A stretch of DNA of 51,579 nucleotides from an uncultured bacterium (lineage in GTDB: Bacteria; UBA8481), in NCBI GenBank assembly GCA_964499705.1, contig CAZCME010000006.1, positions 186,001 to 237,579 on the forward strand, given 5' to 3'. Shown here piece by piece: positions 2,901 to 51,579 of the stretch. Under the pieces are notes generated by a model that saw nothing but the letters and a program-made list of their open reading frames with translations, was not told where the DNA came from and did not search any database. How positions within the stretch are numbered: position 1 is the first letter of the stretch; each line of letters opens with the position of its first letter. The position numbers and the translations under genes were made by a program.

Positions 2901-4799
2901 ATGAAGAGAATCCTGCCGTCGCTAGTCATGGTAATCTTCTGCGGAACGCTCGCGTTCCCTTCCTTCATCCTCACCAATGCGGACATGGCCAGCACCTGGA
3001 ATATCGTGATCGCCCATGCGGACGGAGCCGGTTACGGCACGGCGACACTAGCTGCAGGCACGCCCTTCGGCAGTCTCACGTCGGGAACCGACACGATCGT
3101 TTATCTCTCGGGAATCACGGACACGAACAACGCGTCGACGAGCTTCCATAACTTCTTCCAATCCTATTACGTCCACCCTTCCGGACTCTTTTCCGCGGAA
3201 TCGACCTCCGCCGGTCTCGCCGCCGACCTGGTCGAAACCGGCCCCGTGGACCGCATCGCCGGATCCCTCTCCGACACCTCATCCGCCGCCCTCTTTTTCG
3301 GAGCGCGCATTCTCCCTGCCGCCACGGATGATTTTTTCGTGGCCTTGAAAAGCAATGCTCTCTCCGCCGCGCAGATGCTCGGCGCGTCCGGAATCGACAC
3401 TTTTCTCGGCGCGGGGCTGATGCGGAGCGAAAGCGAGACGAGTTCCACTTCGATGACCTTCGCTTTCGGCCGCGTGACCGACACCGTGGTTTCCTTCCGG
3501 ACATTCCGGCCCGGCGAAACGGCCGCGCGCGTCCCGATCGGCTGCAGCGTTTCGCTGGCCGCGGGCGGAGGACAGATGCTCTGGAATCCTACGATCGCGC
3601 TGACGCAAAGCATTGCCGGTTCGAGCGGACACTTCAGCGACACCTTCTCGCAGTACCGCGTTTTCGTCACCGCGGATTCCAACCTGGCCGTCCTGCTCCG
3701 CGATTCGTCTCCGGCGGCTCCGGATTCCTTCCATGCCCAGGCGATCGCTTTCGCAGTCCGGAGGCGATCGCCCCTGGCGCTCGCGGATCTTGCCGGCCCG
3801 TGGCAGGCGACCATGCTCCTGCCGGAATCCTCCGCTTTCACCGCGATCCCGGGACAGTTCGAATTCCGCTTCAATGGAACCGGCCTCTTCGAGAATGGCG
3901 CTCCACCTCCTCATCATTCTTCCAGGACTTGCACCGTCGTGCTCTCCAGCGACACCCTCGGAGGCGCAACGCGGGGCGATTCCTTCTACCTCATCACATT
4001 CCGCCCCGGCCGCGACAGCGCCGAAATTCAGCTGCGCGCCTATCTTTCCGCGGATTCGAGATTTCTCACGATGGGCGGATACAGGTCCTCCGACAGGGCG
4101 ATCGGGCTCGGAGCTCGAAGGGCCAACAGCCTGCGCCGACGACTCGCTTTCGACACAACTGACACGCCGATCAGCCGCGGCCGGCTGGCGATCGGACTTC
4201 GCGTCGACTCCGGCGCTTCCGTCGGGCAGCCGACGTTTCTCATCTCCACGCTCGATACGTCCTCCACGCGCGTCCGTTCCTTCCGCGATTTCCGGGACAC
4301 GGCTCTGCGGAATCTGAACGTGGACACGATCCATGGAGCCGTGACGATCGTGCCGGACACGACGGTATCGGTCGACTCCGTGATCGTCACCATCGACATC
4401 CAGGGCTCCGCGGACTCGACCGGCGGCGTGAACATCGTTGCCATGATTTTCGATGAGGAATCCGGAGTCTGGACCAGGATTCCGGAAACCCGGGTGACCG
4501 CCCAGAACATCGGAATCATCTCGTTCCGCCCGCCGCACTTTTCCGATTTCGGCGCGGGCGAAGTCGCGACATCCATTTCCCCGGACCCCAACGCGGATAT
4601 TTCCCACGCCTGCGTCCTCAGCGCCGCCGCGTCCTCGATCGGAATCCCTCGATTCCTCCCCCGGCTCCGCGCCGCGCGCGACTTTCTCCTGACAGCACCA
4701 CTCGGAATCTTCGGCGTCCGCATATACTACTCCTTCTCGTCCTGTTCCCTGCTGCTCTGCCTGCCCTTCCTCCTGACGGTTCGCGCCCGGCGCGCCTGA
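2901..4799 (+). CDS. Secreted beta-rich surface protein with a divergent CFI-box-CTERM-like C-terminus
   Basis: N-terminal signal peptide; Ser/Thr/Asp-rich body; C-terminal CVLSAAA...LRAARDFLLTAPLGIFGVRIYYSFS followed by a hydrophobic stretch and RARRA. Confidence 0.7.
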   Translation: MKRILPSLVMVIFCGTLAFPSFILTNADMASTWNIVIAHADGAGYGTATLAAGTPFGSLTSGTDTIVYLSGITDTNNASTSFHNFFQSYYVHPSGLFSAESTSAGLAADLVETGPVDRIAGSLSDTSSAALFFGARILPAATDDFFVALKSNALSAAQMLGASGIDTFLGAGLMRSESETSSTSMTFAFGRVTDTVVSFRTFRPGETAARVPIGCSVSLAAGGGQMLWNPTIALTQSIAGSSGHFSDTFSQYRVFVTADSNLAVLLRDSSPAAPDSFHAQAIAFAVRRRSPLALADLAGPWQATMLLPESSAFTAIPGQFEFRFNGTGLFENGAPPPHHSSRTCTVVLSSDTLGGATRGDSFYLITFRPGRDSAEIQLRAYLSADSRFLTMGGYRSSDRAIGLGARRANSLRRRLAFDTTDTPISRGRLAIGLRVDSGASVGQPTFLISTLDTSSTRVRSFRDFRDTALRNLNVDTIHGAVTIVPDTTVSVDSVIVTIDIQGSADSTGGVNIVAMIFDEESGVWTRIPETRVTAQNIGIISFRPPHFSDFGAGEVATSISPDPNADISHACVLSAAASSIGIPRFLPRLRAARDFLLTAPLGIFGVRIYYSFSSCSLLLCLPFLLTVRARRA

Positions 4800-28927: not shown

Positions 28928-30025
28928 TTAATGCGCCAGGGATTGGGTGCCGATCGATTCGAGATTCTTCAGGCCGGCGCGCGTGAGACGATAGCCGGAA
29001 TCCGTCACTTCGACGAGGTCGGCGTATTCGAGAGGAGCGACGACCCGGGCGAGCCTCAAGCGGGACCAGCCGAAACGATGCGCGAGATCGTACGCCGGCT
29101 GGGGCGCGGCATCTTCCTTGAGATGGAGCATCAGGAGTTGACCTGCCAGCCGAAGCGCCAATCGGCGATGGCGCAGGGCGCGGGCCACGAGACCCTGGGG
29201 CGAGAAAAGAAGAGCGAGCAGAAAACAGAAACCGGCGACGGCGGCCATCGCGCCGGCGATGGAGCAGTTCCAGTTATGAGCGACCTCGTAGCCGGCAACG
29301 GCGGAAAAAATGCCGATGCCGATGGACAGGAGGAGCATGGCGGAAAGGCGTGTCGTGAAAAGATATGCGGTGGCCGGGGGAACGATGAGCATCGCGACGA
29401 CGAGGATCGCGCCGACGGCTTCAAAGGAGCTGACGACGACGACGGATACGGACGTCATGAGAACGTAATGCATTAGAACGGGAGAAAATCCCAGCGACGC
29501 GGCGAGCTCGGGATCGAAACTCGTGATCTTCAATTCCTTGTACAGAAGCGCGACGACAAACGCGATCAGGAGCATCGTGGTTCCCGTCACCCAGAGGGCG
29601 CGCGGGCCGAGATCGTGATTCCAGAGCGTCAGCGTGTCCCATGGCGTGTAGGCGATCTCGCCGTACAGGACGCAATCGAGATCCAGGTCGACCTGCGCCG
29701 CATAGCGGCTGATGAGAATGACGCCGATGGAGAAGAGCGCGGGAAAGACGACGCCGATGGCGGCATCCTCCCTCAGGCGCCTCGTGTTGTTCAGAACGCT
29801 CACGAGAAAGACGGTCAGGACACCGAGGCATCCCGCGCCGACGACCATCGGGAGCGCGGCGCGGCTGTTGGTGAAGAGAAAGGCGAGGACGATTCCCGGG
29901 AGAACGGCATGGCTGATCGCGTCGCCCAGCAGCGCCATCTTCCGGAGAACAAGAAAACATCCGACCATCGCGCAGCCCGTCGCGACGAAGGAACCGACGA
30001 GCATGATGACGACTTCCGGACTCAT
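28928..30025 (-). CDS. Mn/Zn/Fe ABC permease (TroD/MntD-like) with a C-terminal winged-HTH-like extension
   Basis: LRKMALLGDAISHAVLPG, EDAAIGVVF, YKELKITSFDP, VGAILVVAMLIVP; tail ..LVEVTDSGYRLTRAG. Confidence 0.92.
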   Translation of the reverse strand: MSPEVVIMLVGSFVATGCAMVGCFLVLRKMALLGDAISHAVLPGIVLAFLFTNSRAALPMVVGAGCLGVLTVFLVSVLNNTRRLREDAAIGVVFPALFSIGVILISRYAAQVDLDLDCVLYGEIAYTPWDTLTLWNHDLGPRALWVTGTTMLLIAFVVALLYKELKITSFDPELAASLGFSPVLMHYVLMTSVSVVVVSSFEAVGAILVVAMLIVPPATAYLFTTRLSAMLLLSIGIGIFSAVAGYEVAHNWNCSIAGAMAAVAGFCFLLALLFSPQGLVARALRHRRLALRLAGQLLMLHLKEDAAPQPAYDLAHRFGWSRLRLARVVAPLEYADLVEVTDSGYRLTRAGLKNLESIGTQSLAH

Positions 30026-31305
30026 GATTGTCCCTGCCCCGACCGACGGCGCGGAGGAATCCTCCTGCCGTGCGGATCGAATTGCGGATCGCCCATCTTC
30101 TTCGCCAGGTCGTCGACCACGTCGTCCGAGAGCACGTGTTCCATCGCCTCGGCGTCGCGGTGGAGATGATCGAGCGGCAGCGCGAGATTGCTGGAGAGAT
30201 AGACTTCCCACAGGCGATGATTCCGGACAACGCGTTCCGCCTCCGCAAGCCCTGATTCGGTCAGCCGGAATTCGTCCGTGCCTCGCTCGATCAGCCCGTC
30301 GCGGACGAGCGGCCTGACGTTCTCGATCATGTCGCGGTGCCCGCGTCCACGCAGACCCATGAGCGACGGGGACGAGACGAACGCGCCGGTTTCACCCGAC
30401 CGCTCCGCCATCAGGAACATGTCCTTCAGCAGATTTTCGCGCCGGATCCGATCGCGCACCTTATGATCCCGCAGCCGGGCCCAGAGAAGTCCCCGCTCCG
30501 GAGCGAAGAGCAGCGACACGACGAGCACGGCGCTGGAGACGAGAACGATCATCGGGCCCGTCGGCAATCGTTCCGCCGTCGCACTCGCGACCGCACCCAC
30601 AGCGCCGGAAAGCCCTCCGATCGCTCCGGCGAGAATCACCATGATGGAGAGCCTTTCGGTCCACTGCCTTGCGGCCGCGGCGGGCGTGATGAGCGTGGCG
30701 ACCATGAGGACGACTCCGACCGTCTGCAGTCCCACGACCACGATGATCACGAGGAGGCATGTCAGAAGGATCTCCAGGCGGCGTACTGGATACCCGAGGC
30801 TCTGGCCGAAACCCGGGTCGAAGGAGATCAGCTTGAACTCCTTGAATCCGGCCGCGACGATGATCAGAGCCACGGCGCCGAGGATCGCCATCAGCTTCAG
30901 ATCCTCTTCCACGAGGGTCGCGGCCTGGCCGAAGAGATACTTGTCGAGCCCGGACTGGTTGCCGCCGGTCATCTTCTGGATCCGCGTCAGGAGCACAATA
31001 CCGAGACCGAAGAAGACGGAGAGAACGATGCCGATGGCGGCATCCTCCTTGATCTTGGTCCACCGCACGACGAAGAGGATGAACAGGGATCCGGTGACAC
31101 CCGCGGCCAGAGCGCCGAGCAGCAAGGGAAGCGGCGCCTTCGTTCCGGTCAGGATATAAGCGATGCAGACTCCGGGCAGCGCCGCATGAGCGAGCGCGTC
31201 GCCGAGGAGGCTCTGGCGCCGGAGAAACGCAAAGCTGCCGAGAACGCCGCCGCTGACGCCGAGCATGATGGAGCCCAGCAGGACATTCTGGAGCGTGTAG
31301 GTCAT
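30022..31305 (-). CDS. Mn/Zn/Fe ABC permease (TroC/MntC-like) fused to a DtxR/MntR-like repressor domain
   Basis: [28 protein letters not shown]-terminal [29 protein letters not shown]. Confidence 0.92.
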
Positions 31306-40573: not shown

Positions 40574-41902
40574 CTAAAAGCACATCCTGTAAACGAGGCC
40601 CAGCGCGCCGCCACCGAGAACCACGGGGATGATGTCCCACTTCCTGCGCGTCATTCCGAAGAACGCGAGCACGCTGACGACCGCGACGAATCCATCGACG
40701 CGGCCCGGTTCCGGCAGCAGGACGCTCATTCCGAACCAGACAGCCAGATTCAGAATCACGCCGACCACGACGGCCGTTATGGCCGAAAGCGCCGCGCCGA
40801 GCTTGAGGTTTCCGCGCATCCGCTCGATGTACGGCGCGCCCAAGAAGATGAAGAGGAAGCTCGGCACGAAGGTCATCCAGCTCGTGATCATTGCTCCCAG
40901 CATCGCCGAAGACATCGGCGTCAGCTCCCCCGGATGATTCCACCCGCCCAGGAATCCGACGAATTGCAGCACGAGTATGAGCGGCCCGGGCGTCGTTTCC
41001 GCCAGCCCGAGGCCATCCATCATCTGCGTCGGCGAGAGCCACTGATGAACCTCCACGGCCTGCTGAGCGACGTAAGGAAGAACGGCATAGGCTCCGCCGA
41101 AGGTCACGACAGCAGCCTTGGAGAAGAAGACTCCCTCGCGAAAGAGCGCGTGATCGATCCCGAGCGCGGAACCGGCCACGGCCAGTGGAGCAAACCAGAT
41201 CGAAAGGCCGATGAGCGCCGTGGCAAGCGTGCGCCGGAGAATCGGCCTCACGGAAGTCTGTCCCCCAAGATCGCTGATGACAGTTTCCACCTTCCCCTTC
41301 GCGGTTCCACCATGATCGGCGGCGGGCTCGAACTTCTTCGGGAACCAGTGCCCGCCGGCCAGGCCCAGGAGTCCACCGCAAAGAACGATGAGAGGAAACG
41401 GAAGATGAAAGAAGAAGATCGCGATGAACGACAGGCCGGAGAGAACCCACATGATCTCGTTCTTGAGCGCTTTCCTTCCGATACGGAGAACGGCGGCCGC
41501 CACGATCGCCATGACCGCAGGCTTCAATCCGTAGAAGACGGACTCCACCCACGGGATTTTCCCGAAGAGGACATAAACCGAGGACAGGAACCCCATGCAG
41601 GCGGCCCCGGGGAGCACAAACCACATTCCCGCCACGATCCCGCCCCAGGTCCGGTGCAAAAGCCAGCCGATATAGATGGCGAGCTGATGCGCTTCCGGTC
41701 CCGGCAGAAGCATGCAGTAATTCAGCGCATGCAGGAATCGCGCATCGCTGATCCATCGCCGCTTCTCCACAAGCTCCGCGTGCATCAAGGATATCTGGCC
41801 GGTCGGCCCGCCGAAACTGAGGAGCCCGATCCGGCCCCAGACCCGGAAGGCCTGCATGAAAGTCGGGTGCAGGATCTGCGATGATGGGGAATGTGTCTCC
41901 AT
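40574..41902 (-). CDS. chrA: Chromate efflux transporter, long-chain CHR family
   Basis: SFGGPTGQI, LPGPEAHQLA, TFGGAYAVL, ETTPGPLI; start moved to METHS. Confidence 0.95.
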   Translation of the reverse strand: METHSPSSQILHPTFMQAFRVWGRIGLLSFGGPTGQISLMHAELVEKRRWISDARFLHALNYCMLLPGPEAHQLAIYIGWLLHRTWGGIVAGMWFVLPGAACMGFLSSVYVLFGKIPWVESVFYGLKPAVMAIVAAAVLRIGRKALKNEIMWVLSGLSFIAIFFFHLPFPLIVLCGGLLGLAGGHWFPKKFEPAADHGGTAKGKVETVISDLGGQTSVRPILRRTLATALIGLSIWFAPLAVAGSALGIDHALFREGVFFSKAAVVTFGGAYAVLPYVAQQAVEVHQWLSPTQMMDGLGLAETTPGPLILVLQFVGFLGGWNHPGELTPMSSAMLGAMITSWMTFVPSFLFIFLGAPYIERMRGNLKLGAALSAITAVVVGVILNLAVWFGMSVLLPEPGRVDGFVAVVSVLAFFGMTRRKWDIIPVVLGGGALGLVYRMCF

Positions 41903-42041
41903 GGCCACGCGAGTTATCGCCGTCAGGATATCATCGGACTGAATCGGGCAACAAGCGCAAGTGGACGGCGACATGCGAAAGGAAATAGGCCGTCTCCCCA
42001 TGAAGTCGCAGATCCGGACCACGTTTCGCGTTTCCGAGCGG

Positions 42042-43115
42042 CTATGACGGAGATGCTCCTGGTTTTCGAAACACATGCGCCTCCGTCACTTGCACGTGCA
42101 CATAGCCGCCCGCCGCGAATCCACTCGCGCCGGCCACGCCTTTCGGCATCTGGGCGGTCATGTTCCGGTCCCCACTGCAAAGGATCTCCAGGACCGCTGT
42201 CGCGCCGAGATATTGGATGCTCCGGATGAGCCCGGGCACGGTGTCCCGCGCCGGTTCTGACGCGACGTAGACATCCGAAGGGCGGAAGAGCACGACGGCC
42301 TCGGCATCCGGCTCCAGTCCGTTGGCGCCGAATCGGAAATCGCCCCACGCGATGCGACCTCCGGAAACGCGGCCCTCGATCCGATTCGCATCGCCGACAA
42401 ATGCCGCGACAAATTCCGTCGCCGGCTTGTCGAAGATCTCGCGCGGCGTTCCATCCTGCTCGATCCGACCCCGGTTCGTCACGATGACGCGATCCGAAAG
42501 CTCGAACGCCTCGTCCTGGTCGTGTGTCACGAGAAGCGTCGTCAGCCTGATCCGATCGTGAAGCTTCCGGAGCCACGCTCGCAGTTCCTTTCGCAAGCGG
42601 GTATCGAGCGCGCCGAAGGGTTCGTCCAGGAGCAGGAGACGCGGCTCCGGCGCCAGAGCGCGCGCCAGAGCCACGCGCTGGCGCTGGCCGCCGGAGAGCT
42701 GCGATGGCATTCTCGTTCCGTAACCCTTCAGACCGACGAGGTCGAGCAGATTATCCGCGCGAGCCTCGCGTTCCTTCTTTCCCTGACCGCGCACCAGGAG
42801 TCCGAACGAAATATTTTCCAGCACGGTCATATGCCTGAAAAGAGCGTAATGCTGAAAAACGAATCCGACTTTCCGATCCTGCACGGGAATATGAGTCACA
42901 TCCTCGCCATTGATCTCGATCCGGCCCTCGTCGGGATTCTCCAGGCCCGCGACGCAACGGAGAATCGTCGATTTGCCGGATCCCGACGGCCCGAGCATCG
43001 TGACGAACTCCCCGTCCGCCACGGAGAAGCTCGCTTCCGCAAGGGCCACGAACCGCGCCGACGCGGGCGATGGCCCGATAAAACTCTTCCTTAAATTCCT
43101 GACGACGATGCTCAC
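42042..43115 (-). CDS. cysA: Sulfate/thiosulfate ABC transporter ATPase
   Basis: GPSGSGKST, VGFVFQHYALFRHMTV, LSGGQRQRVALARALA, LRKELRAWLR; GTG overlaps the cysW stop. Confidence 0.93.
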   Translation of the reverse strand: MSIVVRNLRKSFIGPSPASARFVALAEASFSVADGEFVTMLGPSGSGKSTILRCVAGLENPDEGRIEINGEDVTHIPVQDRKVGFVFQHYALFRHMTVLENISFGLLVRGQGKKEREARADNLLDLVGLKGYGTRMPSQLSGGQRQRVALARALAPEPRLLLLDEPFGALDTRLRKELRAWLRKLHDRIRLTTLLVTHDQDEAFELSDRVIVTNRGRIEQDGTPREIFDKPATEFVAAFVGDANRIEGRVSGGRIAWGDFRFGANGLEPDAEAVVLFRPSDVYVASEPARDTVPGLIRSIQYLGATAVLEILCSGDRNMTAQMPKGVAGASGFAAGGYVHVQVTEAHVFRKPGASPS

Positions 43116-43921
43116 GCCCGCCACCTCCTCTTCCAAAGTTCCAGCAGCGCCATCCCCCCGAGCGACAGCGCCACCAGCAATGCCGCGGCCGTGTAGGCTG
43201 CTTCCATCCTGAAATCGATATAGGCGTCATAGATATAGAGCGGGGTGGTCTGCGTCTTGCCGAGAATATTACCGGACACGGCGAGAACCGCTCCGAACTC
43301 ACCGAGCGCCCGCGCGTACGACTGTGCCGCGCCGTAGAGAATGCCCTCCCGCAGGTTGGGAATCGTGATATGAAATATCGTCTGCGCGCGGGAAGCGCCG
43401 AGCGTTCTCGCGGCTTCCTCCGCTTCGCGGCCCATCTCCTCCAGAAGCGGCGCTACTTCCCTGATCACGAACGGCAAAGTCACAAAGACGGTCGCGAGGA
43501 CCATGCCGGGAAGCGCGAACATGATCTGAAAACCGGCGGTCTCAAACAAGGGGCCCAGCATGCCTCGCGGTCCATAGGTGACGAGGAGCGCGAAGGCGCC
43601 GATGGCGGCGGGCGCCGCGAACGGAAGATCGACGACGCCGTTCCATAAGTCGCGGCCGGGGAACCGGTCGCGCACCAGCACGAAGGCCGTCATGATCCCG
43701 AACGGAATCGTGATGCAGAGAGTGACAAACGTGATGAGGAGCGTGTTGACGAGTGCCGCAAGCGCGTATTGGTCGCGCGATTCCGTGAAGTTCACGTTCC
43801 AGCCCGGAGCGAATGCCTGTTTCAGAAGATAGAGGAGCGGAACGATGACGAGACCTCCCAGATATACAAGAGTAAAGACTTTCAGGCAGACACTTCCGAA
43901 TCGAATGCCGTGCGATTTCAT
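43112..43921 (-). CDS. cysW: Sulfate ABC permease CysW
   Basis: FPGR..VDLPFA, LATVFVTLPFVIREV, EEAARTLGAS, ARALGEFGAV..SGNI.GKTQT. Confidence 0.9.
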   Translation of the reverse strand: MKSHGIRFGSVCLKVFTLVYLGGLVIVPLLYLLKQAFAPGWNVNFTESRDQYALAALVNTLLITFVTLCITIPFGIMTAFVLVRDRFPGRDLWNGVVDLPFAAPAAIGAFALLVTYGPRGMLGPLFETAGFQIMFALPGMVLATVFVTLPFVIREVAPLLEEMGREAEEAARTLGASRAQTIFHITIPNLREGILYGAAQSYARALGEFGAVLAVSGNILGKTQTTPLYIYDAYIDFRMEAAYTAAALLVALSLGGMALLELWKRRWRA

Positions 43922-44721
43922 GGCCGTATCCTCCCAGACGTGCGCTCTTCGACTATCCGCGCTGTCGTCAGCATGAGAAACGAAATCGTGAGGACGACGA
44001 TCGAAGCCGCCGCCGCGCCCTTGAAGTCAAATCCCTCGATCCGCGAATAGACAAACGTCGAGGCGACCTGGGTGCGGAACGGTTCCGTGCCCGCGATGAA
44101 GACGACCGCGCCGAATTCGCCGAGCGCGCGCGCGAACGTGAGAGCCGCGCCGGAAACGATGCCGGTCCGGATCGCGGGGAAGATCACGGATACGAATGTC
44201 CGGACGGGCCCTGCTCCCATCGTGGCCGCCGCTTCCTCCTCGGCGCGATCCACGGCCGCCAGAAGCGGCTGGACCGAACGGATCCCGAACGGCACCGTCA
44301 CAACGAGACACGCGATGTAGACGGCGATCGGCCTGTAGAGAATCGGCATGCCATGCGCCTCCAGCCAGCCGCCGAGCGGAGAAATCGGTCCGAAGATCGA
44401 AGCGAGCGTCAAGCCCGTGACGGCGGTCGGCAGAGCCAGGGGCAGATCGACGAGCGCATCGAGCGCGCGGCGGCCCGGAAAATCAAGCCTCACGAGCGCG
44501 AACGCGACGGCCGTGCCGAAGACCATGCTGGCCAGACTGACCGCTCCGGCCGAAAGGAAAGACAGCCGGAACGCCTCGGCTGCTTCCTCATCCGTCAGCG
44601 CTTCGATAAGAGGCCCCACGCCACCCTCCAGACCGCGCCAGAATACAAGCGCGACCGGAAGGGCGACTATGATGCCGACATACGACAGGGCGATGAAACG
44701 CGTCAGATATCGAACGTTCAT
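43918..44721 (-). CDS. cysT: Sulfate ABC permease CysT (CysU)
   Basis: FPGRRALDALVDLPLALPTAVTGL, RSVQP, FARALGEFGAVVFIAG. Confidence 0.92.
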   Translation of the reverse strand: MNVRYLTRFIALSYVGIIVALPVALVFWRGLEGGVGPLIEALTDEEAAEAFRLSFLSAGAVSLASMVFGTAVAFALVRLDFPGRRALDALVDLPLALPTAVTGLTLASIFGPISPLGGWLEAHGMPILYRPIAVYIACLVVTVPFGIRSVQPLLAAVDRAEEEAAATMGAGPVRTFVSVIFPAIRTGIVSGAALTFARALGEFGAVVFIAGTEPFRTQVASTFVYSRIEGFDFKGAAAASIVVLTISFLMLTTARIVEERTSGRIRP

Positions 44722-45761
44722 CGGTTCGCGCGACGCTCCGAACGGACGATCCTGTCCCAGAGGCCTCCCTTTTCGAAAATCTCCCTGTAGATCTTCGGCC
44801 CTCCGCCGAGATAAGCGAGATCGAATTGTCCGGGCGATGTCGGAAAACGCATAGAATATTTTTGATGCACGGCGGGATCAGCCGGCCTCAGGCCGAATTC
44901 CGCCAGCACTTTCTGGGATACGGGATCGCGCAGGTATTTCACGAAGGCGGCCGCGATGTCCGAGACACCGTGTTTCGCGCTGTTGACGTCGACGACCGCG
45001 GCGGGATTCTCGATGATGATCGTCGAGGGCGGAATCACGAAGTCAACCTGCTTTCCCTGCCGGCGCCGCAGGAGCAACTCATTTTCGTATGTGATGGAGA
45101 CATCCGCCACGCCGCGTTCGAAGGACTGCGTCGATGCGCGCGCGTTCTCGTCGAAGACAACGACGTTGCGGTAGAACGCCCGGAGCGCTTCTTCAGCCGC
45201 GGCGGCGTTGCCTCCGCTTTTCAGGACCGCGCCATACAACGCAAGGATGTTCCATCGGGCTCCGCCGGACGTGCGCGGATTCGGCGTGACGATCTTAACG
45301 CCAGGCCTGGTCACGTCCATCCAGAGCTTCACGTTCGCGGGATTGCCGGTGGGAACGCGCAGAACAACCACGGACTGGGACACGATTCCTTGACCGCCGG
45401 CGTACCAGTCCTGCGTGATAAGCCCGGCCTTGACTATCTGTTCGACGTCGGACCAATCGGAGAGATAGATCACGTCGGCGCCGTTGCCCGCAATAACATT
45501 GCGAGCCTGTGCGCTGGAGCCCGTCCAGGAATATTCAAACTCAACCACTTCTCCGCCGTGTTCCGTAGCCCACTTCCGCGCGAAAGCGGGAGCGATCCCC
45601 TGCATGACGGCCTCGCCCGGCACCGAATAACCCGCGACACAAATCTTCCTCTTCGCGGTCGCTTCAATTCTCGGCGGCGAAACCACCAGACCGACGGCCA
45701 CGATCAATATCGCCGCGGACATATATCTGAACGCATTTTTCAAAATCAGCTTGAAGTTCAT
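44718..45761 (-). CDS. sbp: Sulfate/thiosulfate-binding periplasmic protein (Sbp/CysP family)
   Basis: GSSAQAR, GNPANV..WMD, TPNPRTSGGARWN, YENE, IENPAAVVD. Confidence 0.9.
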   Translation of the reverse strand: MNFKLILKNAFRYMSAAILIVAVGLVVSPPRIEATAKRKICVAGYSVPGEAVMQGIAPAFARKWATEHGGEVVEFEYSWTGSSAQARNVIAGNGADVIYLSDWSDVEQIVKAGLITQDWYAGGQGIVSQSVVVLRVPTGNPANVKLWMDVTRPGVKIVTPNPRTSGGARWNILALYGAVLKSGGNAAAAEEALRAFYRNVVVFDENARASTQSFERGVADVSITYENELLLRRRQGKQVDFVIPPSTIIIENPAAVVDVNSAKHGVSDIAAAFVKYLRDPVSQKVLAEFGLRPADPAVHQKYSMRFPTSPGQFDLAYLGGGPKIYREIFEKGGLWDRIVRSERRANR

Positions 45762-45872
45762 GGTTCCCTCCCGGGAAGTCCTGTAGATCCGATTGTCGAG
45801 TTAAAAAGGAACGAATGGGGGGCTCTCGGGGCACACACCGCCTGAGGCGGTGTGACCGACAGGGAGAAGCCC
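45762..45872 (-). promoter_or_regulatory. Candidate attenuator RNA structure in the sulfate operon leader
   Basis: 9-bp stem cacaccgcc/ggcggtgtg (45834-45854), extendable by GGGGCTTCTC/GAGAGCCCC, then a U-rich tract; ATCTACAG complementary to the leader-peptide 3' end; UUCCC/GGGAA over the SD. Confidence 0.6.
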
Positions 45873-45989
45873 CTATCTACAGAGACAGCAGGAGCAGGAT
45901 GAGAGAATGGAGAAACGCGCAGCGGAGTCGCGCAGATGCGGATGCAGTGCGGTTCCTGAGGAGAGTGAGGCTGATGTCGCGCGTTTCAT
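45873..45989 (-). CDS. Cys-rich leader peptide, 38 aa (MKRATSASLSSGTALHPHLRDSAARFSILSSCSCCLCR)
   Basis: 4 Cys in the last 7 codons; ATG 7 nt after the putative -10; directly upstream of the sulfate ABC operon. Confidence 0.7.
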   Translation of the reverse strand: MKRATSASLSSGTALHPHLRDSAARFSILSSCSCCLCR

Positions 45990-45996
45990 GGGCGAG

Positions 45997-46025
45997 AGTC
46001 TTATCGGCGTCGTGTATCTTGTCAA
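45997..46025 (-). promoter_or_regulatory. Sigma70 promoter of the leader peptide/sulfate operon
   Basis: Minus strand TTGACA(46025-46020)-17 bp-AAGACT(46002-45997), with AT-rich sequence upstream. Confidence 0.7.
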
Positions 46026-46053
46026 ATAATAATATCCGCGAGCGCGAAGCGGC

Positions 46054-46267
46054 TTATTTCTTCTCCACGTAGAATTTGATGGCGGTCTTTTCCGCGCCGT
46101 CGATATCGACGTCGACGAAGGTCGGCTTGCAGACGAGATCGATCCCATTGGGAGCAACGTAACCCCGGGCGATGGCGATGGCCTTGACCGGCTGGTTGAT
46201 GGCGCCCGCGGGGACTTGGCGGAAGCGGCGGGGGGGGCAGGCTGAAAAGAGGCAGGTCGTCGGTCAT
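46054..46267 (-). pseudogene. spoVS: 5'-truncated spoVS joined out of frame to an xseA-like N-terminal leader
   Basis: 46209-46054 reads AGAINQPVKAIAIARGYVAPNGIDLVCKPTFVDVDIDGAEKTAIKFYVEKK* (SpoVS C-terminal part); no in-frame start; ATG 46267 reads MTDDLPLFSLPP, 1 nt out of frame at a G8 run. Confidence 0.85.
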
Positions 46268-46315
46268 GCCCGGCACCTCACGTCAAAGCACCTGATGCAA
46301 AATGCAGTGACGCAT

Positions 46316-48154
46316 TTAGAATGTATACGTCGCGTCGAAGCGAACGTCGCGGGTGCGGAAATCGAGGAGATGGTTATCCTCGCTGACATTGCGATAGGCG
46401 CCGGTAAGCGTCAGCTCCAGGTCGGGAACGTCGGTCGGGCGATACCCCAGATTGACGCGCGCCGCGTGGATGCGCGAGCCCTGGCCTGGGTTGTTGCGCT
46501 GCGTCCAGCCGAGATCCCAGTTCGCTCCCGCGGCTACGGGGCCGCGTAAAGCCGTGAGGCTGGCATTCAAACCTTCGGTCCTTGTGAGCTGATTGCCGTT
46601 GCGGAGCTTGTCGTAGCCATCGCGGTATCCTGCGTTAGCCTGAAGTCGCGTCTTCCAGCTCTTCAATTCTAACGGCCGTCCGATCGAAACCGACCAGTTC
46701 TCGGCCCTGCGGTCGCTCGTCGCGTCGATGTCGTTGTCGGTCAATTGCCAGCCGAATCGCCCGCCCATCGACCACTCCCCCATCCGATGGCCGAAGGACG
46801 CGGAGTAATCCTCATTCTTCGTGTTGATCCCGAAATCCGTCCGGCCACGCCGCGTCCTCCGCGCATCGAATGTCATCCGGAAGTTCTCCGGCTGGAGCCA
46901 CTCTTCGAGCCGGCTTCCCGCCGCATCGCTCCTCTTCGCCTTCAGACCGAGCGCTCGTATCGCGAGAGGCGCTCGAAAGAGCGAGAGATTCATGGCCGTT
47001 CCTTCCGAGAATGTCCAGTTCGTGAGCAGCTTCTTCCGGCGTGCATTGTCCTCGGTGCGGTTGAGCGACCAGTCCACGGAAACCCATTCCGCTAGAGGAT
47101 GGTTGGAGAGAAGGCCCCAGCGCCTGTTGTCCGGACCGACGGCGCCCTGCGGCGCGAAATAATCCTCGCCGACAATCTCGAAGGAGGCGCGCGAGAAACC
47201 GGGAATGAGGATCTTCCAGCCCTTCATCTCCGTGGTCGGTCTTCGCCACGTCAAGCTCGACGCGACGGCGCCTCCGTTCTGCTCGCGCGAGGCCGTGCGA
47301 AGATCCATCCGTCCCCGCGAGAGACCCCAGTCCGCGTCCAATTGGAGAGCGGATCCGATCCGGCTCTCGAGGCGCAGAGCCATGGCGCGGGCATCCTGGC
47401 GGGCGAGCGAGCCGGGATTGTCGTTCGACGCAATGTCGTCGTGCATCCGCGATCCCGTCCATTGGAGGGACGTCCGTCCGATGGGACCAAGCCAGTCATC
47501 GGGCGTCGTCCATCCGACCTGCGCGCCCGTCACCCATCGCGTGAAACGAACGCCATCGACACCTCGCGCAGAACGGCCGGCCGAGGACGATACCTCCAGC
47601 TTGTGGCCGTTCTGGAACGGCAGGCGAACGTTCGCCTGTAATCCCTGGAGCGATGTCGAAAGCGCGTATCGATGGTAATTGGGAAAGAGATTTCCAAACG
47701 CAAGGTCCCATCTATCCTTGTATGCCAATGTCGATTGGAGATTCAACAATTGCCAATCATGATTCTTCGACGGAGCGATCTGCGGATCGTCCGTCCGCCG
47801 GATGGATAGATTCGTGTTCCAGAGGTAATCCTTCCACGACTTCATCATCCGCATGGTGATGTTCTGTTCATTGTAGAGCCGCTCCGTCTTGATCCGCCGT
47901 GATGGCGCGCCGTCGAATTCCGGGTAGTAGAGCGAGTGCCGGTACTGCATATCGAACTTCTGGAAGAATGGCTTCCCCGGTGCCGCCGCCGGTCCAGCCC
48001 CTCCAAGGGGCGAACCGGGTTCGACGACGATGGGAGCGTTCCAGAAAATATCGGCGTGCGCGGGTGCGACCACCAACAACATCGCAATGAAGGCATCGAT
48101 CATAAAGATACGACGACGCAACATGGTCATTTCAGCATTGGAGCAATGCTTCAA
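46316..48154 (-). CDS. Putative outer-membrane beta-barrel protein
   Basis: Signal peptide ending PAHA; Trp/Arg/Gly-rich amphipathic strands; C-terminal VRFDATYTF beta-signal. Start probably 48130/48124. Confidence 0.75.
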   Translation of the reverse strand: MKHCSNAEMTMLRRRIFMIDAFIAMLLVVAPAHADIFWNAPIVVEPGSPLGGAGPAAAPGKPFFQKFDMQYRHSLYYPEFDGAPSRRIKTERLYNEQNITMRMMKSWKDYLWNTNLSIRRTDDPQIAPSKNHDWQLLNLQSTLAYKDRWDLAFGNLFPNYHRYALSTSLQGLQANVRLPFQNGHKLEVSSSAGRSARGVDGVRFTRWVTGAQVGWTTPDDWLGPIGRTSLQWTGSRMHDDIASNDNPGSLARQDARAMALRLESRIGSALQLDADWGLSRGRMDLRTASREQNGGAVASSLTWRRPTTEMKGWKILIPGFSRASFEIVGEDYFAPQGAVGPDNRRWGLLSNHPLAEWVSVDWSLNRTEDNARRKKLLTNWTFSEGTAMNLSLFRAPLAIRALGLKAKRSDAAGSRLEEWLQPENFRMTFDARRTRRGRTDFGINTKNEDYSASFGHRMGEWSMGGRFGWQLTDNDIDATSDRRAENWSVSIGRPLELKSWKTRLQANAGYRDGYDKLRNGNQLTRTEGLNASLTALRGPVAAGANWDLGWTQRNNPGQGSRIHAARVNLGYRPTDVPDLELTLTGAYRNVSEDNHLLDFRTRDVRFDATYTF

Positions 48155-48178: not shown

Positions 48179-48691
48179 TCACTTCGGAATCATTCCAATG
48201 TAATAAGTCTTGAGTGCTGCTCCAGCCAAAGTCTTTCCAAACTCATAGGGCGAATCAGGCTTTGGTTCCAAATCTCGATTCATTTGACCATCAAACCCCC
48301 AAAAGGTCATCTGTACCCCATAGTGCGTTACAAGGTTAGGATCGATTTTGGAAGTTGCGGCAAATGAATACGATATGGTGACTATCGTATTGATTTCGCC
48401 CGTCTTGCCGGCATCGACTTCCGATACTTTGATCTTGGTGTAATTTGACGCGCCGAGATACTTCGGATCCGCGCCTACGGCTGAGGTCCACTTGTTATCA
48501 ATCGTAGGCTCACCCGAATAAAGACGCACGTTGACGAATATTTCTTTCACATTCGGGTCCAACTTATGAAGCACGACAGGCACCTTGAATGTAAACTGCG
48601 GTTCCTCGGCAGATACAGTCGAACCGCTAAACCCTGACAACACAAAGAACACACCACATAACCAGACTCTACATCGACTCATTTTGAACAT
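48179..48691 (-). CDS. Secreted hypothetical protein with atypically AT-rich codon usage
   Basis: SD GGAGG; signal peptide ending VSA; visibly lower GC than the flanks. Confidence 0.7.
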   Translation of the reverse strand: MFKMSRCRVWLCGVFFVLSGFSGSTVSAEEPQFTFKVPVVLHKLDPNVKEIFVNVRLYSGEPTIDNKWTSAVGADPKYLGASNYTKIKVSEVDAGKTGEINTIVTISYSFAATSKIDPNLVTHYGVQMTFWGFDGQMNRDLEPKPDSPYEFGKTLAGAALKTYYIGMIPK

Positions 48692-48751: not shown

Positions 48752-51579
48752 CTAATTCGCCGTCGCCGCGGGCGCGGTGACGGTCTCGATCTGGTTCAAC
48801 TGTCCGCTGGTAACGCAATTTCCACCCGTGAGATCCACTCCGGTTGCGCCGTTATTATCCGCGATGTAGCACCCCGTGAGCCGCATGATGGTGACCGCGC
48901 AACCCAACGGAGCATCGGCGGCGAACGAGAAGTTATTCTGGATGTTCACGGCGTTCAGAATCGACGTCGCGCATCCACAGTTGTCGATGAGACCGCGGCC
49001 GCCGTTGTTCCGAAGATTGCCGCCAGTCATGGAAAAATATCCACCGGAGACGCTCAATCCATGCGACGAATTGTTCTGCACGCTCGTCGCGTTGAGCGTC
49101 ACAGTTGCCGTGGACAGGTGACTCAGTTGAACACCCATATAATTCGATGAGATCGTTGAATTCGAAATGGTCACCGTTCCGCCGGATGCGCGGATCCCCG
49201 CTTCCGACGCGCCGTTGTCGAAACCGGATATCGTCGAGCTCGTGACGCTCACAGTCGAGCCGGTTGCATCGATGCCGCGGCGAGCCGAGCCGGCGTCGCT
49301 GATGGTGGATGCCGCTATCGTCAGTGATCCTCCGATAGCCGAAATTCCGGTGCCCAGCGCATTCGGGTCGCGGATCGTCGCGCTCGATATCGTCGCGCTC
49401 CCCGACACAAGGCTCAACACGTTGTCGCCGCCGGTAACCGTCGATCCGGAGTTGATCGCGAGCGTGCCGCCGTTGACGACAATATTGGATGTACCCGTGG
49501 ATTGGATCGTACCGTCCAACGCGAGCATGCCGCCCGTCGAGAAGATGTTCGCTCCTGTATTGCCGCTGATCGCCGCGTTGGTCAACGTCACGGTCCCGCC
49601 GGAGACTTCGATGCCGTCGATATTGTTCGTGAGCGTCGGCGACGCGAGCGTCACATTGCCGCCCTGGACATGGAACGCATCCGTCGCGTCGCGTATCGAG
49701 CATGACGAGATTGTGCCGATCGATCCCGAATGGAAGAGAATTCCCTGCCACGAACCGGGCGAGCCTGACGTGGAACGGAACGTCGCGGAGGTCGCATCGA
49801 GCGTTCCGTAAACGATGAGCCTCGCTCCGGGGGCAAAGTTGAGAGTGACCCCCGGATCGACGCGCATCGTTCTTCCTGCTTCCACGACGATGTCGCCGGA
49901 GTAAGTCTGATCGCCGGAGATGACGGATGAAATGTCCGTCCCTCCCGTCGCGCCCGACGTCCCCGAAACGGCAAATGTTCCGCCGCCGATCGTGCTGCCT
50001 TCGTCAGCGCGAACGACGGCCGTGCAGCTCGAAGGTTCCGCCCGACCGAAGAGGAGCGATCCGTTGGTAACGGACGACGCGTCCTGACGGATCACCTTCG
50101 CCTCGCCGTCTTCGTCCGCGAAGATGAGGCGCGTCCTGCGGGAGCGCTTGATGATATCCTGGTTCGTAGCAAGGAACCGGGCGCGGGCGTCCCAGAGGAA
50201 AATCACTTCCGCCTGCTTTACCTCCGGATAGACGCGGAACTGCTCCGATGCCGCCGAGTATGAGAAGTTGTCGAAGATCTCGAAGTCGCACCGAAGCGAG
50301 AGCGGCAGCGTGAAGTGGTCGACGTTCGTGCCGACGGAGCTCTGCGAGCGATACTCGGTGGATATGCGATCCATGAGCGAGCGGACATCTTCGCGCTGAT
50401 ACGCCGCGAGGATGGCCTCGGATGCCTCCTGCGCTCTCCGGGCGAATTCATCCGCCGACCAGGCCGCCGCCGGACGCGTCTCGCCTGCGGGTGGATTGAC
50501 GTATTTGAGCGCGGCCTCGCGAGCCAGCGCGTCAAGCCTCGCGCTTTCGAGCGCATTCTCCACCTCCCGGACATGAAAGGCTCCGGTGACGGGGTCGGAG
50601 AGGCCGAAGAGCGGATCTCCGGCCTGGCCGAGAATAAGCCAGCGTTCTCCGTCGAAGCGCATCGAGAGAGCCGTCCGCTGATCTCGCTCGTTGACTTCGG
50701 CGCCGGGGATCGACATACGGAAAAGATATCGCTTCACCGATCGCCGCCAGCCGATCTCGACGTCCGCGCCGCCGGTGAGGGGGCGGACTGTGAGCGACTG
50801 CGGCGCAATACGGATGCCATCCATGTAGCCGAAGTCGAAGGCGAGCGACCGCGCCAGGAGATTCCTGTCCAGAAGTCCGCCGCCGGCCGTAACGCCGCTG
50901 TAGCCGTTGTCGAACTGCGAAAGCACGTCGGCCAGGCGCTCGGATTGGTATGCTTCGAACAGAGCATTGATCATCGGAGCGATCAGGTCGTCGGCACTGG
51001 TATCACGAACGGGATATCGGAATGGCCGAAATGTGTTGACAGCTTCCATTCTCGATTCGCGCAGACTCGCCGTCTCAAGGAGAGAACGCCAATCGAGTTT
51101 CTCACTGGATGAATAATCTATGATCGAGACGGAGCGATGAACCCCCATCGCGGAGAGCCTGTATTTCCCGGACGGCGTCTCCCGGGGAAACACCATGAGA
51201 AACATGACGCTGAATGGATCGGAAGAACCCGCGCGCGAAATAGCAAGGGGTTCGACCTTCATCATCGATTCTCCATCTTCGCGCGTTAAAGCCGCCCGAG
51301 CCGCGGATCGAATCTTCTCGTCGGACGTCCGTCCGAAGAGCTCCTCCACCTTGCGGCCCTTGACGATAATCGTGAGATCCGATCCCGCCCTGACCTCCTC
51401 CGGCATCAGCTCCACACTCACATCCTCGGGCGATGGCCCAAAGTCGATTTCTTCCATGCCCGGCTCCGGCGTGGTAGCAACACCGGAAGCTTTCGAGTCC
51501 GATATCGCATACGACTCGTCTTTAATCCCCGTCGCCGTCAACGCCTCAGGCACCGTGATCGTCTGCGGCGCGAACTTCA
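48752..51579 (-). CDS. Large exported protein with two NTF2/SnoaL-like repeats and a C-terminal right-handed parallel beta-helix; 5' end outside the window
   Basis: Frame open to the window edge; repeats ..LFEAYQSERLADVLSQF.. / ..ILAAYQREDVRSLMDRI..; PGVTLNF..GSWQGILF; many ISxxTIxxN/GI repeats. Confidence 0.8.
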   Translation of the reverse strand, partial: KFAPQTITVPEALTATGIKDESYAISDSKASGVATTPEPGMEEIDFGPSPEDVSVELMPEEVRAGSDLTIIVKGRKVEELFGRTSDEKIRSAARAALTREDGESMMKVEPLAISRAGSSDPFSVMFLMVFPRETPSGKYRLSAMGVHRSVSIIDYSSSEKLDWRSLLETASLRESRMEAVNTFRPFRYPVRDTSADDLIAPMINALFEAYQSERLADVLSQFDNGYSGVTAGGGLLDRNLLARSLAFDFGYMDGIRIAPQSLTVRPLTGGADVEIGWRRSVKRYLFRMSIPGAEVNERDQRTALSMRFDGERWLILGQAGDPLFGLSDPVTGAFHVREVENALESARLDALAREAALKYVNPPAGETRPAAAWSADEFARRAQEASEAILAAYQREDVRSLMDRISTEYRSQSSVGTNVDHFTLPLSLRCDFEIFDNFSYSAASEQFRVYPEVKQAEVIFLWDARARFLATNQDIIKRSRRTRLIFADEDGEAKVIRQDASSVTNGSLLFGRAEPSSCTAVVRADEGSTIGGGTFAVSGTSGATGGTDISSVISGDQTYSGDIVVEAGRTMRVDPGVTLNFAPGARLIVYGTLDATSATFRSTSGSPGSWQGILFHSGSIGTISSCSIRDATDAFHVQGGNVTLASPTLTNNIDGIEVSGGTVTLTNAAISGNTGANIFSTGGMLALDGTIQSTGTSNIVVNGGTLAINSGSTVTGGDNVLSLVSGSATISSATIRDPNALGTGISAIGGSLTIAASTISDAGSARRGIDATGSTVSVTSSTISGFDNGASEAGIRASGGTVTISNSTISSNYMGVQLSHLSTATVTLNATSVQNNSSHGLSVSGGYFSMTGGNLRNNGGRGLIDNCGCATSILNAVNIQNNFSFAADAPLGCAVTIMRLTGCYIADNNGATGVDLTGGNCVTSGQLNQIETVTAPAATAN

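Follow-up and report, generated by a model that had tools for sequence, protein, structure and literature searches.

A candidate cysteine-sensing leader peptide ahead of a sulfate transporter operon in two uncultured bacterial lineages

Background

Among described leaders in which ribosomes count Cys codons, the closest to the case presented here is Ms5788A of Mycobacterium smegmatis. As reported in its preprint, mutation to a non-start codon, recoding of the Cys tract, and helix-breaking and compensatory mutations established translational attenuation in this system (Canestrari et al. 2020, bioRxiv 10.1101/834739), and the mycobacterial case is cited as translational attenuation elsewhere (PMC13236596). 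Cys-codon leaders without terminators have also been predicted, according to the survey that lists them, in Mycobacterium, Propionibacterium acnes and Bifidobacterium longum (PMC1262725). As far as the literature found shows, Cys-codon counting has been demonstrated experimentally only in mycobacteria, and is otherwise predicted in a few Actinobacteria and ahead of cysS in Rhodobacterales. Here we describe a 290-nucleotide (nt) region ahead of sbp, the first gene of a sulfate ATP-binding cassette (ABC) transporter operon, on a 51,579-nt stretch of DNA from an uncultured groundwater bacterium (GenBank assembly GCA_964499705.1, contig CAZCME010000006.1, positions 186,001 to 237,579; the whole stretch is hereafter called the window). 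We consider it fairly probable that this region is a ribosome-mediated cysteine attenuator acting by translational attenuation.

The bacterium probably gauges its cysteine supply by the speed at which ribosomes read Cys codons, because an open reading frame (ORF) with a Cys-rich tail and a conserved hairpin precede its sulfate-uptake genes, and do so in another phylum as well. The kind of regulator is known, but the family to which this leader belongs is real, conserved and as yet undescribed. Full-text literature searches, which leave subscription journals uncovered, found no account of a comparable leader ahead of sulfate ABC transporter genes, nor of one in the lineages concerned. It would represent a family unrelated to the mycobacterial one that follows the same logic, and it would control sulfate import in two lineages that are uncultured and poorly known.

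Results and discussion

Architecture of the leader

All coordinates given here are window positions, and the leader and the operon both lie on the minus strand. A putative -35 element, TTGACA (46025-46020), with AT-rich DNA on its 5' side, is followed after 17 nt by a putative -10 element, AAGACT (46002-45997), which has the A at its second and the T at its sixth position. Seven nt further on (CTCGCCC) stands an ATG (45989-45987) with no Shine-Dalgarno (SD) sequence ahead of it. This ATG opens an ORF of 38 codons closed by UAG (45989-45873), which encodes the peptide MKRATSASLSSGTALHPHLRDSAARFSILSSCSCCLCR with the C-terminal end SSCSCCLCR. Its putative sensor tract (45896-45879) comprises four Cys codons, namely codons 32, 34, 35 and 37 of 38 (UGC 45896-94, UGC 45890-88, UGU 45887-85 and UGU 45881-79), two of which, 34 and 35, are consecutive. 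The last Arg codon, AGA (45878-76), and the stop UAG (45875-73) come directly after. The ORF is the first cistron of the sulfur operon sbp-cysT-cysW-cysA, the first gene of which starts on the same strand 111 nt past the leader ORF, and the gene ends of which overlap.

The G of the UAG stop codon is also the first base of a 55-nt hairpin, P2 (45873-45819), the 5' base of which, GGGGCU, pairs with AGCCCC. P2 folds at -32.9 kcal/mol (z -4.8), and none of 200 shuffles fold as well. A small alternative hairpin (45858-45877), in which GAUAGGG (strand 1) pairs with CCCUGUC (strand 2), encloses the stop codon and excludes the P2 base. Nearer to sbp, AUCUACAG (45788-45781) is the perfect complement of CUGUAGAU (Cys-Arg-stop, 45882-45875), and the sequence UUCCC-GGGA-GGGAA (45777-45764) could mask the sbp SD, GGGAGGGA (45772-45765), which precedes the sbp ATG (45761-45759). 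An earlier note on the window, made from its letters alone, had described the spaced promoter and ATG, the 38-codon ORF with its SSCSCCLCR end and the UUCCC-GGGA-GGGAA element, and all of these are present on the minus strand. The hairpin that it placed after the stop codon is likewise real, but it begins at the G of that codon rather than behind it.

The tail of the ORF is unusual for its genome (4.67 Mb, 61% GC), in the long ORFs of which Cys makes up about 1% of codons. Genome-wide, 40 stop-to-stop frames hold at least four Cys in their last nine residues, and seven of these have an in-frame ATG. When 14 of the 39 others were inspected, including all six with an ATG, every one lay inside or antisense to a long ORF; the leader ORF is the sole intergenic Cys-tailed ORF found in the genome. 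Its last codons, UGU-AGA-UAG, are kept although AGA accounts for 3.6% of the Arg codons and UAG for 19% of the stops in this genome. The device occurs in a single copy in each of the genomes G000 (that of the window), G041 and G042. Three additional matches to a Cys-x-Cys-AGA-UAG pattern in these genomes (two in G042 and one in G000) were rejected, all of them being without the hairpin.

Conservation of the leader across phyla

The closest relatives of the Sbp protein form a small clade with 50-72% identity. Five other members of this clade come with DNA: L005, L006 and L007 from genome contigs, L085 from a metagenome contig, and L180, which was recovered by a BLAST search with the L006 leader. 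The earlier note had suggested looking for Cys-terminated short ORFs in orthologous leaders, and the device was found at five of the six loci of the clade that have upstream DNA (the window, L085, L006, L007 and L180). The Sbp proteins of the leader-bearing loci show 52-57% identity. L006, L007 and L180 belong to a phylum represented by 79 genomes in the set searched, and the window's genome to another represented by 5; the device is hence found in at least two GTDB phyla and seems, to judge from these sequences, to have moved between phyla together with the operon.

The leader peptides are MQTLDVKLISSLSNLHLVKPRAAAKPGFARNSISANQIHNSCCRICICR in L085 (49 codons), MILHSFHSTSFSSSNVKPLISHKGSSRSISFCCTCICR in L006 (38 codons) and MSQLPTSVDLGYSFSKTDVRAFSKKSSLSLLCCSCICR in L180 (38 codons), and that of L007 (38 codons) differs from that of L006 at five residues, all located before the Cys tract. 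All five leaders share a promoter of the form TTGAC(A/T), a spacer of 17-18 nt and a -10 element with A2 and T6 (AAGACT, TAGATT or GATAGT), followed after 7-10 nt by an ATG without an SD. All contain four Cys codons within the last 7-8 codons and end in C-[I/L]-C-R-UAG, with the block UCUGUAGAUAGGG(G/A)CU being identical throughout, and in all of them P2, with a length of 55-65 nt, begins at the G of UAG. The last seven codons, the stop and the following 6 nt are 77-100% identical between leaders, as against 40-61% for the rest in distant pairs. The ORF length is 38 codons in four of the five even though the part before the Cys tract is 48-70% identical with many alignment gaps. The chance that the frame would be open in the AT-rich leaders (30-39% GC) is 0.041, 0.084 and 0.128 per locus. 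The base of P2 displays one compensatory change, from G-C to A-U, between the window and L085 on one side and L006, L007 and L180 on the other, and in an inner helix L006 and L007 have CUAU/AUAG where L180 has CCC/GGG. Alignments of the leaders made with MAFFT are structurally inconsistent. Taken together, the orthologous leaders, their open frames and the class of promoter-ATG geometry discussed below support the core idea of the earlier note, that of a leaderless Cys-codon leader peptide sensing cysteine for the sulfate ABC operon.

A search with the leader DNA in 41 genomes (the window's own and 40 relatives) had a match in its own genome only. The other four genomes in the set from the window's GTDB phylum (including its family and order) have no orthologue of this sbp, and close relatives are therefore unusable for comparison. 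A single-protein scan of genome contigs gave 209 pattern matches, none of which were confirmed. In the 600 nt upstream of 80 genome Sbp loci, 13 of the 80 had at least three Cys in eight residues, none convincingly, and from 80 metagenome Sbp loci, 66 of them with enough upstream DNA, five were flagged, of which only L085 was real. Over the whole plus strand of these 160 loci 70 frames were flagged; L006, L007, L085 and a Xanthobacter group were taken further. BLAST of the L006 leader against the 79-genome phylum recovered three real holders, along with short AT-rich matches in five other genomes. Two DNA pattern scans of genome contigs produced, beyond L006 and L007, only chance matches without Cys-rich frames (L165/L168/L171, L166 and L167). 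In one metagenome-assembled genome, represented by L165/L171 and L168, there are two near-identical hairpin copies preceded by CUGUAGAUAGGGGCU with no Cys-rich frame, which we took to be chance matches.

Two other groups of Cys-rich frames were noticed in these searches. Frames ending in CCC plus one residue (mostly ...RRCCCT), near positions 1650-1735, are conserved in Xanthobacter/Aquabacter loci (L043, L046, L052, L054, L056, L063, L067, L069, L073, L077 and L080). In the three that were read (L046, L056 and L069) they are an out-of-frame reading inside a conserved part of cysH, the phosphoadenosine phosphosulfate (PAPS) reductase gene, and the group was dismissed. This case illustrates that conserved Cys-rich frames can be artefacts. 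In the Alcaligenes loci L029, L033, L034 and L041 a common Cys-rich frame of 15-20 codons (e.g. LALPCCSLCCSCSCL) lies near 4390-4460, about 1 kb downstream of the sbp match, and may be an out-of-frame reading of a permease.

A promoter geometry that suggests a leaderless start

A scan for consensus promoters is silent on AAGACT because this hexamer matches the -10 consensus at only 3 of 6 positions. Over the whole genome, downstream of TTGAC[AT]-N16-18-NANNNT, an ATG or GTG stands 6 nt away at 27 sites, 19 of which open ORFs of at least 100 codons, and 7 nt away at 16 sites, 10 of which do so; the combined peak at 6 and 7 nt thus comprises 43 sites, 29 of them with such ORFs. The remaining distances between 3 and 13 nt have 4-13 sites each, amounting to 69 sites with 23 long ORFs. 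For comparison, 33% of random ATG/GTG codons open long ORFs, and with a control hexamer the count at each distance is 3-7. From the peak of start codons at 6-7 nt it follows that many leaderless genes seem to be used by this organism, with the same geometry as the short ORF, which hints that leaderless mRNAs could be common in the uncultured lineage of the window.

Predicted folds of the leader

In the minimum-energy fold of the window's leader P2 is nested within a helix of the Cys tract (UCCUGCUCC...CUGUAGAU) with AUCUACAG...GGGAGGGA, which includes the sbp SD; the partner of the SD in this fold is UCCUGCUCC of the Cys tract. The duplex between the Cys tract and the SD region, including AUCUACAG, has a predicted energy of -21.2 kcal/mol. 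A perfect inverted repeat of at least 8 nt arises somewhere in the leader in 497 of 2000 dinucleotide shuffles and is unremarkable per se; a perfect repeat that joins the last three codons and the stop to the final 40 nt before the sbp AUG arises in 16 of 2000. The perfect complementarity of CUGUAGAU and AUCUACAG pointed out in the earlier note is confirmed, with the latter figure as its position-specific chance. Opening the SD of the window costs 10.8 kcal/mol in the free leader versus 7.2-9.5 kcal/mol with a modelled ribosome on a Cys codon, and in four of the five leaders this cost falls by 0.4-3.6 kcal/mol when a ribosome is modelled on the first three Cys codons.

The small 1:2 helix (GAUAGGG with CCCUGUC or CCUAUC) occurs in all five leaders and excludes the P2 base in each. 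The pairing of GAUAGGG with CCCUGUC is also seen in the L180 fold, and that of GAUAGG with CCUAUC in L006 and L007; in the window this hairpin is weak relative to P2. L006, L007 and L180 have an alternative with two helices, one between the Cys/stop strand GCAUCUGUAGAUAG and the 5' strand of P2, the other between the 3' strand of P2 and the ribosome-binding site (RBS). This state, combining the 1:2 and 3:4 helices, lies 1.1 kcal/mol above the minimum in L006 and 0.5 kcal/mol in L007, and is itself the minimum in L180. It is only in these three leaders that 1:2 and P2 are nearly isoenergetic. The same four-strand state is 11.3 kcal/mol above the minimum in L085. A four-strand switch of the kind found in the leader of ermC would, on these models, fit the three relatives L006, L007 and L180 better.

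Proposed mechanism

We propose that the mRNA starts at, or within a few bases of, the leader ATG and that the 38-codon ORF would be translated without an SD, with the four Cys codons among its last seven acting as the sensor. When charged tRNA-Cys is scarce, the ribosome would wait on the Cys codons and keep the RNA stretch that it covers single-stranded. When cysteine is ample, it would finish at the UAG within the base of P2 and leave, whereupon the leader would fold and hide the RBS of sbp. In the window this off state would consist of the Cys tract paired directly with the sbp SD around P2, in a manner resembling Ms5788A. In L006, L007 and L180 it would instead be the four-strand state, in which the two halves of P2 are kept apart, the 5' one paired with the Cys/stop strand and the 3' one with the SD; here a stalled ribosome would break the first helix, so that P2 forms and the SD is set free, following the logic of ermC. 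We commit ourselves to translational attenuation because both wirings would give the same outcome, with a stall turning the operon on. The sensor part, in which the ribosome reads four Cys codons that close a leaderless ORF and then meets a stop codon lying in a hairpin, appears well supported by comparison. What has been shown are the features of the sequence, the extent to which they are conserved and the folds predicted for them. We infer from these the transcription start, translation of the leader ORF, ribosome stalling and its consequence for sbp, as well as the mechanism of the output, which is less clear than the sensor.

Several observations weigh against this proposal. The fold of the whole leader has a z of only -2.3, and P2 taken alone is unremarkable in L180 (z -0.8). 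The best upstream partner of the sbp RBS reaches -19.4 kcal/mol, a value of -19 or lower being found for 515 of 700 sampled genes (the 700 were drawn from 3770 crude gene starts, each was compared with its own upstream 235 nt, and the mean best duplex was -22.1 kcal/mol); energy alone therefore fails to single out the pairing of the Cys tract with the SD, and this complementarity is ordinary for this GC-rich genome. Accordingly, the competing pairings advanced in the earlier note are indeed part of the minimum-energy fold, but the strength of the RBS pairing is matched by most of the sampled genes, and the distal AUCUACA is present in only two of the five leaders (the window and L085, and not L006, L007 or L180). 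The strand that masks the SD varies from leader to leader. For L085 the models predict no opening of the SD on stalling, and the energy shifts predicted for the other leaders are small and purely thermodynamic. The ground state expected of an ermC-type leader is not that of the window, where the four-strand state lies 16.3 kcal/mol above the minimum. As to the start site, the ATG lies 9-10 nt past the -10 element in the four AT-rich leaders L085, L006, L007 and L180, for which a leader of 2-4 nt and no leader at all are equally likely. In L005 the 437 nt upstream, up to the end of the contig, contain no such ORF. The five sequences, two of which are close relatives, are too few for covariation statistics. 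The leader is without differences in the contigs of runs X2, X3 and X5, while that of X7 lies outside it; the identity of the leader in all covering contigs from other samples leaves no population variation to use. Finally, no Cys-rich ORF stands ahead of cysK, cysE, two genes of the PAPS reductase family or the sulfite reductase genes in the window's genome, and there is thus no regulon-wide pattern.

Two neighbouring elements in the relatives may be mentioned here. In L005, at 350-440, the sbp RBS is immediately preceded by a hairpin of about 40 nt that is nearly perfect and may be a different control element. In L006 (1783-2454) and L007 (1760-2434) a DUF2490 gene (E 4e-30 in L006) lies between the Cys leader and sbp, and its product may be an outer-membrane partner of sulfate uptake.

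Alternative explanations

The main rival is transcriptional control, including control by Rho. Under transcription attenuation, the position of the ribosome would decide on termination before sbp, either through P2 and a U-rich intrinsic terminator or through the action of Rho on the C-rich, G-poor RNA that follows P2. P2 is strong, a UUUUU run is found within 16 nt after it, and a CCA..UUCG motif together with a U-run recurs after P2 in the window, in L180 and in L006/L007. Moreover, the stop codon lies inside the 5' strand of P2, as in the trp-type layout, in which the terminating ribosome blocks strand 2, and alternative 1:2 and 2:3 pairings exist. Rho has also been proposed for the terminator-less Cys leaders of Actinobacteria in the survey that predicted them (Seliverstov et al. 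2005, PMC1262725). An intrinsic terminator is not supported, however: the terminator scan calls none at or after P2 in the window, and the U-run (45807-45803) begins 11 nt beyond the stem. Directly after P2, or after any other conserved hairpin, there is no U-tract in L085, L006, L007 or L180. A 20-kb part of the window shows no excess of canonical terminators (12 found, 16.5 expected). We therefore regard transcription attenuation as unlikely.

We consider it quite improbable that the product of the ORF is itself functional, whether as a Cys-rich micropeptide (metal- or redox-active, or an accessory of the transporter) or as a TnaC-like arrest peptide responding to a small molecule at the stop codon. 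In all five leaders the final residues and the stop are invariant, even in a 61% GC genome in which AGA and UAG are rare, and the length of 38 codons recurs in four of the five. In L006 and L007, furthermore, opening the SD costs 0.9-2.4 kcal/mol more when a modelled ribosome sits on the last Cys codon or on the stop. The first 30 residues, on the other hand, are poorly conserved, and a profile search with the five leader peptides in a collection of 5.8 billion protein sequences returned 10 candidates, none at E of 10 or below. The invariant end of the peptide can be explained otherwise, because the region of high nucleotide identity about the stop continues into RNA outside the ORF and into pairings. 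A special form of this idea, which we can offer only as a highly improbable conjecture by analogy with TnaC, is that the invariant C-[I/L]-C-R followed by the rare UAG in the hairpin base arrests the ribosome at termination in response to free cysteine or a related thiol. If so, with cysteine in excess the ribosome would be stopped on the UAG and occupy the 5' strand of P2, leaving the 3' strand available for masking the RBS, and a single gene of 38 codons would read both charged tRNA-Cys (early stall, operon on) and free cysteine (stall at the stop, operon off).

That a structured leader RNA acts alone, by binding a protein or ligand or by stabilising the mRNA, with the Cys frame as an untranslated by-product, is very improbable: P2 and the 16-nt block are the best-conserved parts and the ATG has no SD, but the fixed distance of the in-frame ATG, the four in-frame Cys codons with their differing nucleotide arrangements (CSCC versus CCxC) and the frames that stay open in AT-rich DNA, with a joint chance of about 4e-4 over three independent leaders, all speak for selection on translation, and Rfam offers no family for it, Rfam 15 giving only a chance-level match on the plus strand (E 7.3) within window positions 45400-46400 and none in the leaders of the four homologous loci at E up to 1.

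Genomic context

Translational attenuation by a Cys-reading ribosome remains our preferred reading, and its target would be the sulfate importer operon. The first gene, sbp (44718-45761), encodes the substrate-binding protein of the sulfate ABC transporter (PF13531; TIGR00971, 203.5 bits versus a cut-off of 155.5). It is followed by cysT (43918-44721), which scores just below its family cut-off, cysW (43112-43921), which is above the cut-off of TIGR00969, and cysA (42042-43136), again just below the family cut-off. The GC content of the operon equals that of the genome, which implies that any transfer would be old. A chrA-type chromate efflux gene (40574-42076; PF02417; TIGR00937, 228.5 bits versus a cut-off of 171.7) overlaps the end of cysA on the same strand, and the importer seems to be co-transcribed with this chromate exporter. 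The sulfate importer is a known entry route for chromate.

Upstream of the leader, a weak terminator-like site (46048-46035, minus strand) was called by the terminator scan, and an AT-rich stretch separates it from the -35 element. The upstream neighbour itself is a fragment of a SpoVS gene on the minus strand, ending at 46054. Its matching part (46057-46263) corresponds to the C-terminal half only (PF04232 profile positions 33-83 of 83, E 1e-19). It has no in-frame start after a stop, and an overlapping frame begins at 46276, with a run of eight C (46230-46237) between the two; the fragment is possibly a remnant or a frameshift, and an assembly error is conceivable. Three ORFs further upstream on the same strand (46316-48154, 48179-48691 and 48752-51553; 612, 170 and 933 amino acids) have no Pfam match, and the first two have no NCBIfam match either. 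Among the ORFs scanned, from 28 kb to the end of the window, there is no regulator of the LysR/CysB or Rrf2 type, three neighbouring ORFs having no family match; this agrees with the earlier note, which had seen no sulfur transcription factor nearby. Within a ZnuA/ABC metal uptake cluster, the gene at 30022-31305 (minus strand) encodes an ABC-3 type metal permease with a C-terminal DtxR-type Fe_dep_repr_C domain, and its product looks like a permease-repressor fusion.

Comparison with described attenuators

The candidate Cys leaders of Actinobacteria, as presented in the survey that predicted them (Seliverstov et al. 2005, PMC1262725), likewise have runs of Cys codons near the stop, precede cys or cbs genes and have no recognisable terminator. 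They differ in belonging to other phyla and having other target genes, and the survey's account of them reports no conserved hairpin. The Rhodobacterales leader uORFC-8-2, located ahead of cysS (Brewer et al. 2021, PMC8632094), is also a predicted ribosome-mediated attenuator that reads Cys codons. As described there, it has two tandem Cys codons near position 14-15 and a terminator with a U-run, precedes the gene for Cys-tRNA synthetase rather than a sulfate importer, and is confined to one alphaproteobacterial order.

With the trp, his and ilv attenuators, for which we refer to the account of ilvB1 of M. tuberculosis (PMC13236596), the present leaders share a leader ORF with a cluster of codons for the end product, a stop codon beside the 5' strand of an alternative hairpin, and pairings predicted to be mutually exclusive. 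They differ in that a terminator made of a hairpin and a direct U-tract was found neither in the window nor in the four homologous leaders. The resemblance to the translational attenuation of ermC, as outlined in the Ms5788A preprint (10.1101/834739), lies in L006, L007 and L180, where the strand of the stall site would pair with strand 2 and strand 3 with the SD, and where a ribosome on strand 1 would lead to P2 and a free SD. The stall proposed here results from a lack of Cys-tRNA, as opposed to the drug and nascent peptide in ermC, and in the window the four-strand state is 16.3 kcal/mol less stable than the P2 fold.

The likeness is closest to Ms5788A and to Rv0815A of the mycobacterial 'Cys ribulon', as the preprint describes them. 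In common are a leaderless short ORF as the first cistron, with the leaderless start being inferred in the present case, Cys codons clustered at the 3' end of the ORF, a spacer of about 100 nt to the next gene, and a sulfur or cysteine operon as the target, to which we would add the logic of a stalled ribosome that unmasks the SD. A stable duplex between the Cys tract and the SD of the next gene is also predicted in both, though in the window its predicted strength is within the background of the genome, and the masking strand differs in the four homologues. The differences are that the window's leader has four interrupted Cys codons versus eight in a row in Ms5788A, that it stands before a sulfate ABC importer and occurs once per genome rather than at several loci, and that its stop codon is built into a conserved hairpin. 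Finally, the family was found in two candidate-phylum lineages and not in Actinobacteria. At a length of about 230 nt it offers a compact test case in which one sensor has two apparent wirings, namely the direct pairing of the Cys tract with the SD, as in Ms5788A, and the four-strand switch, as in ermC.

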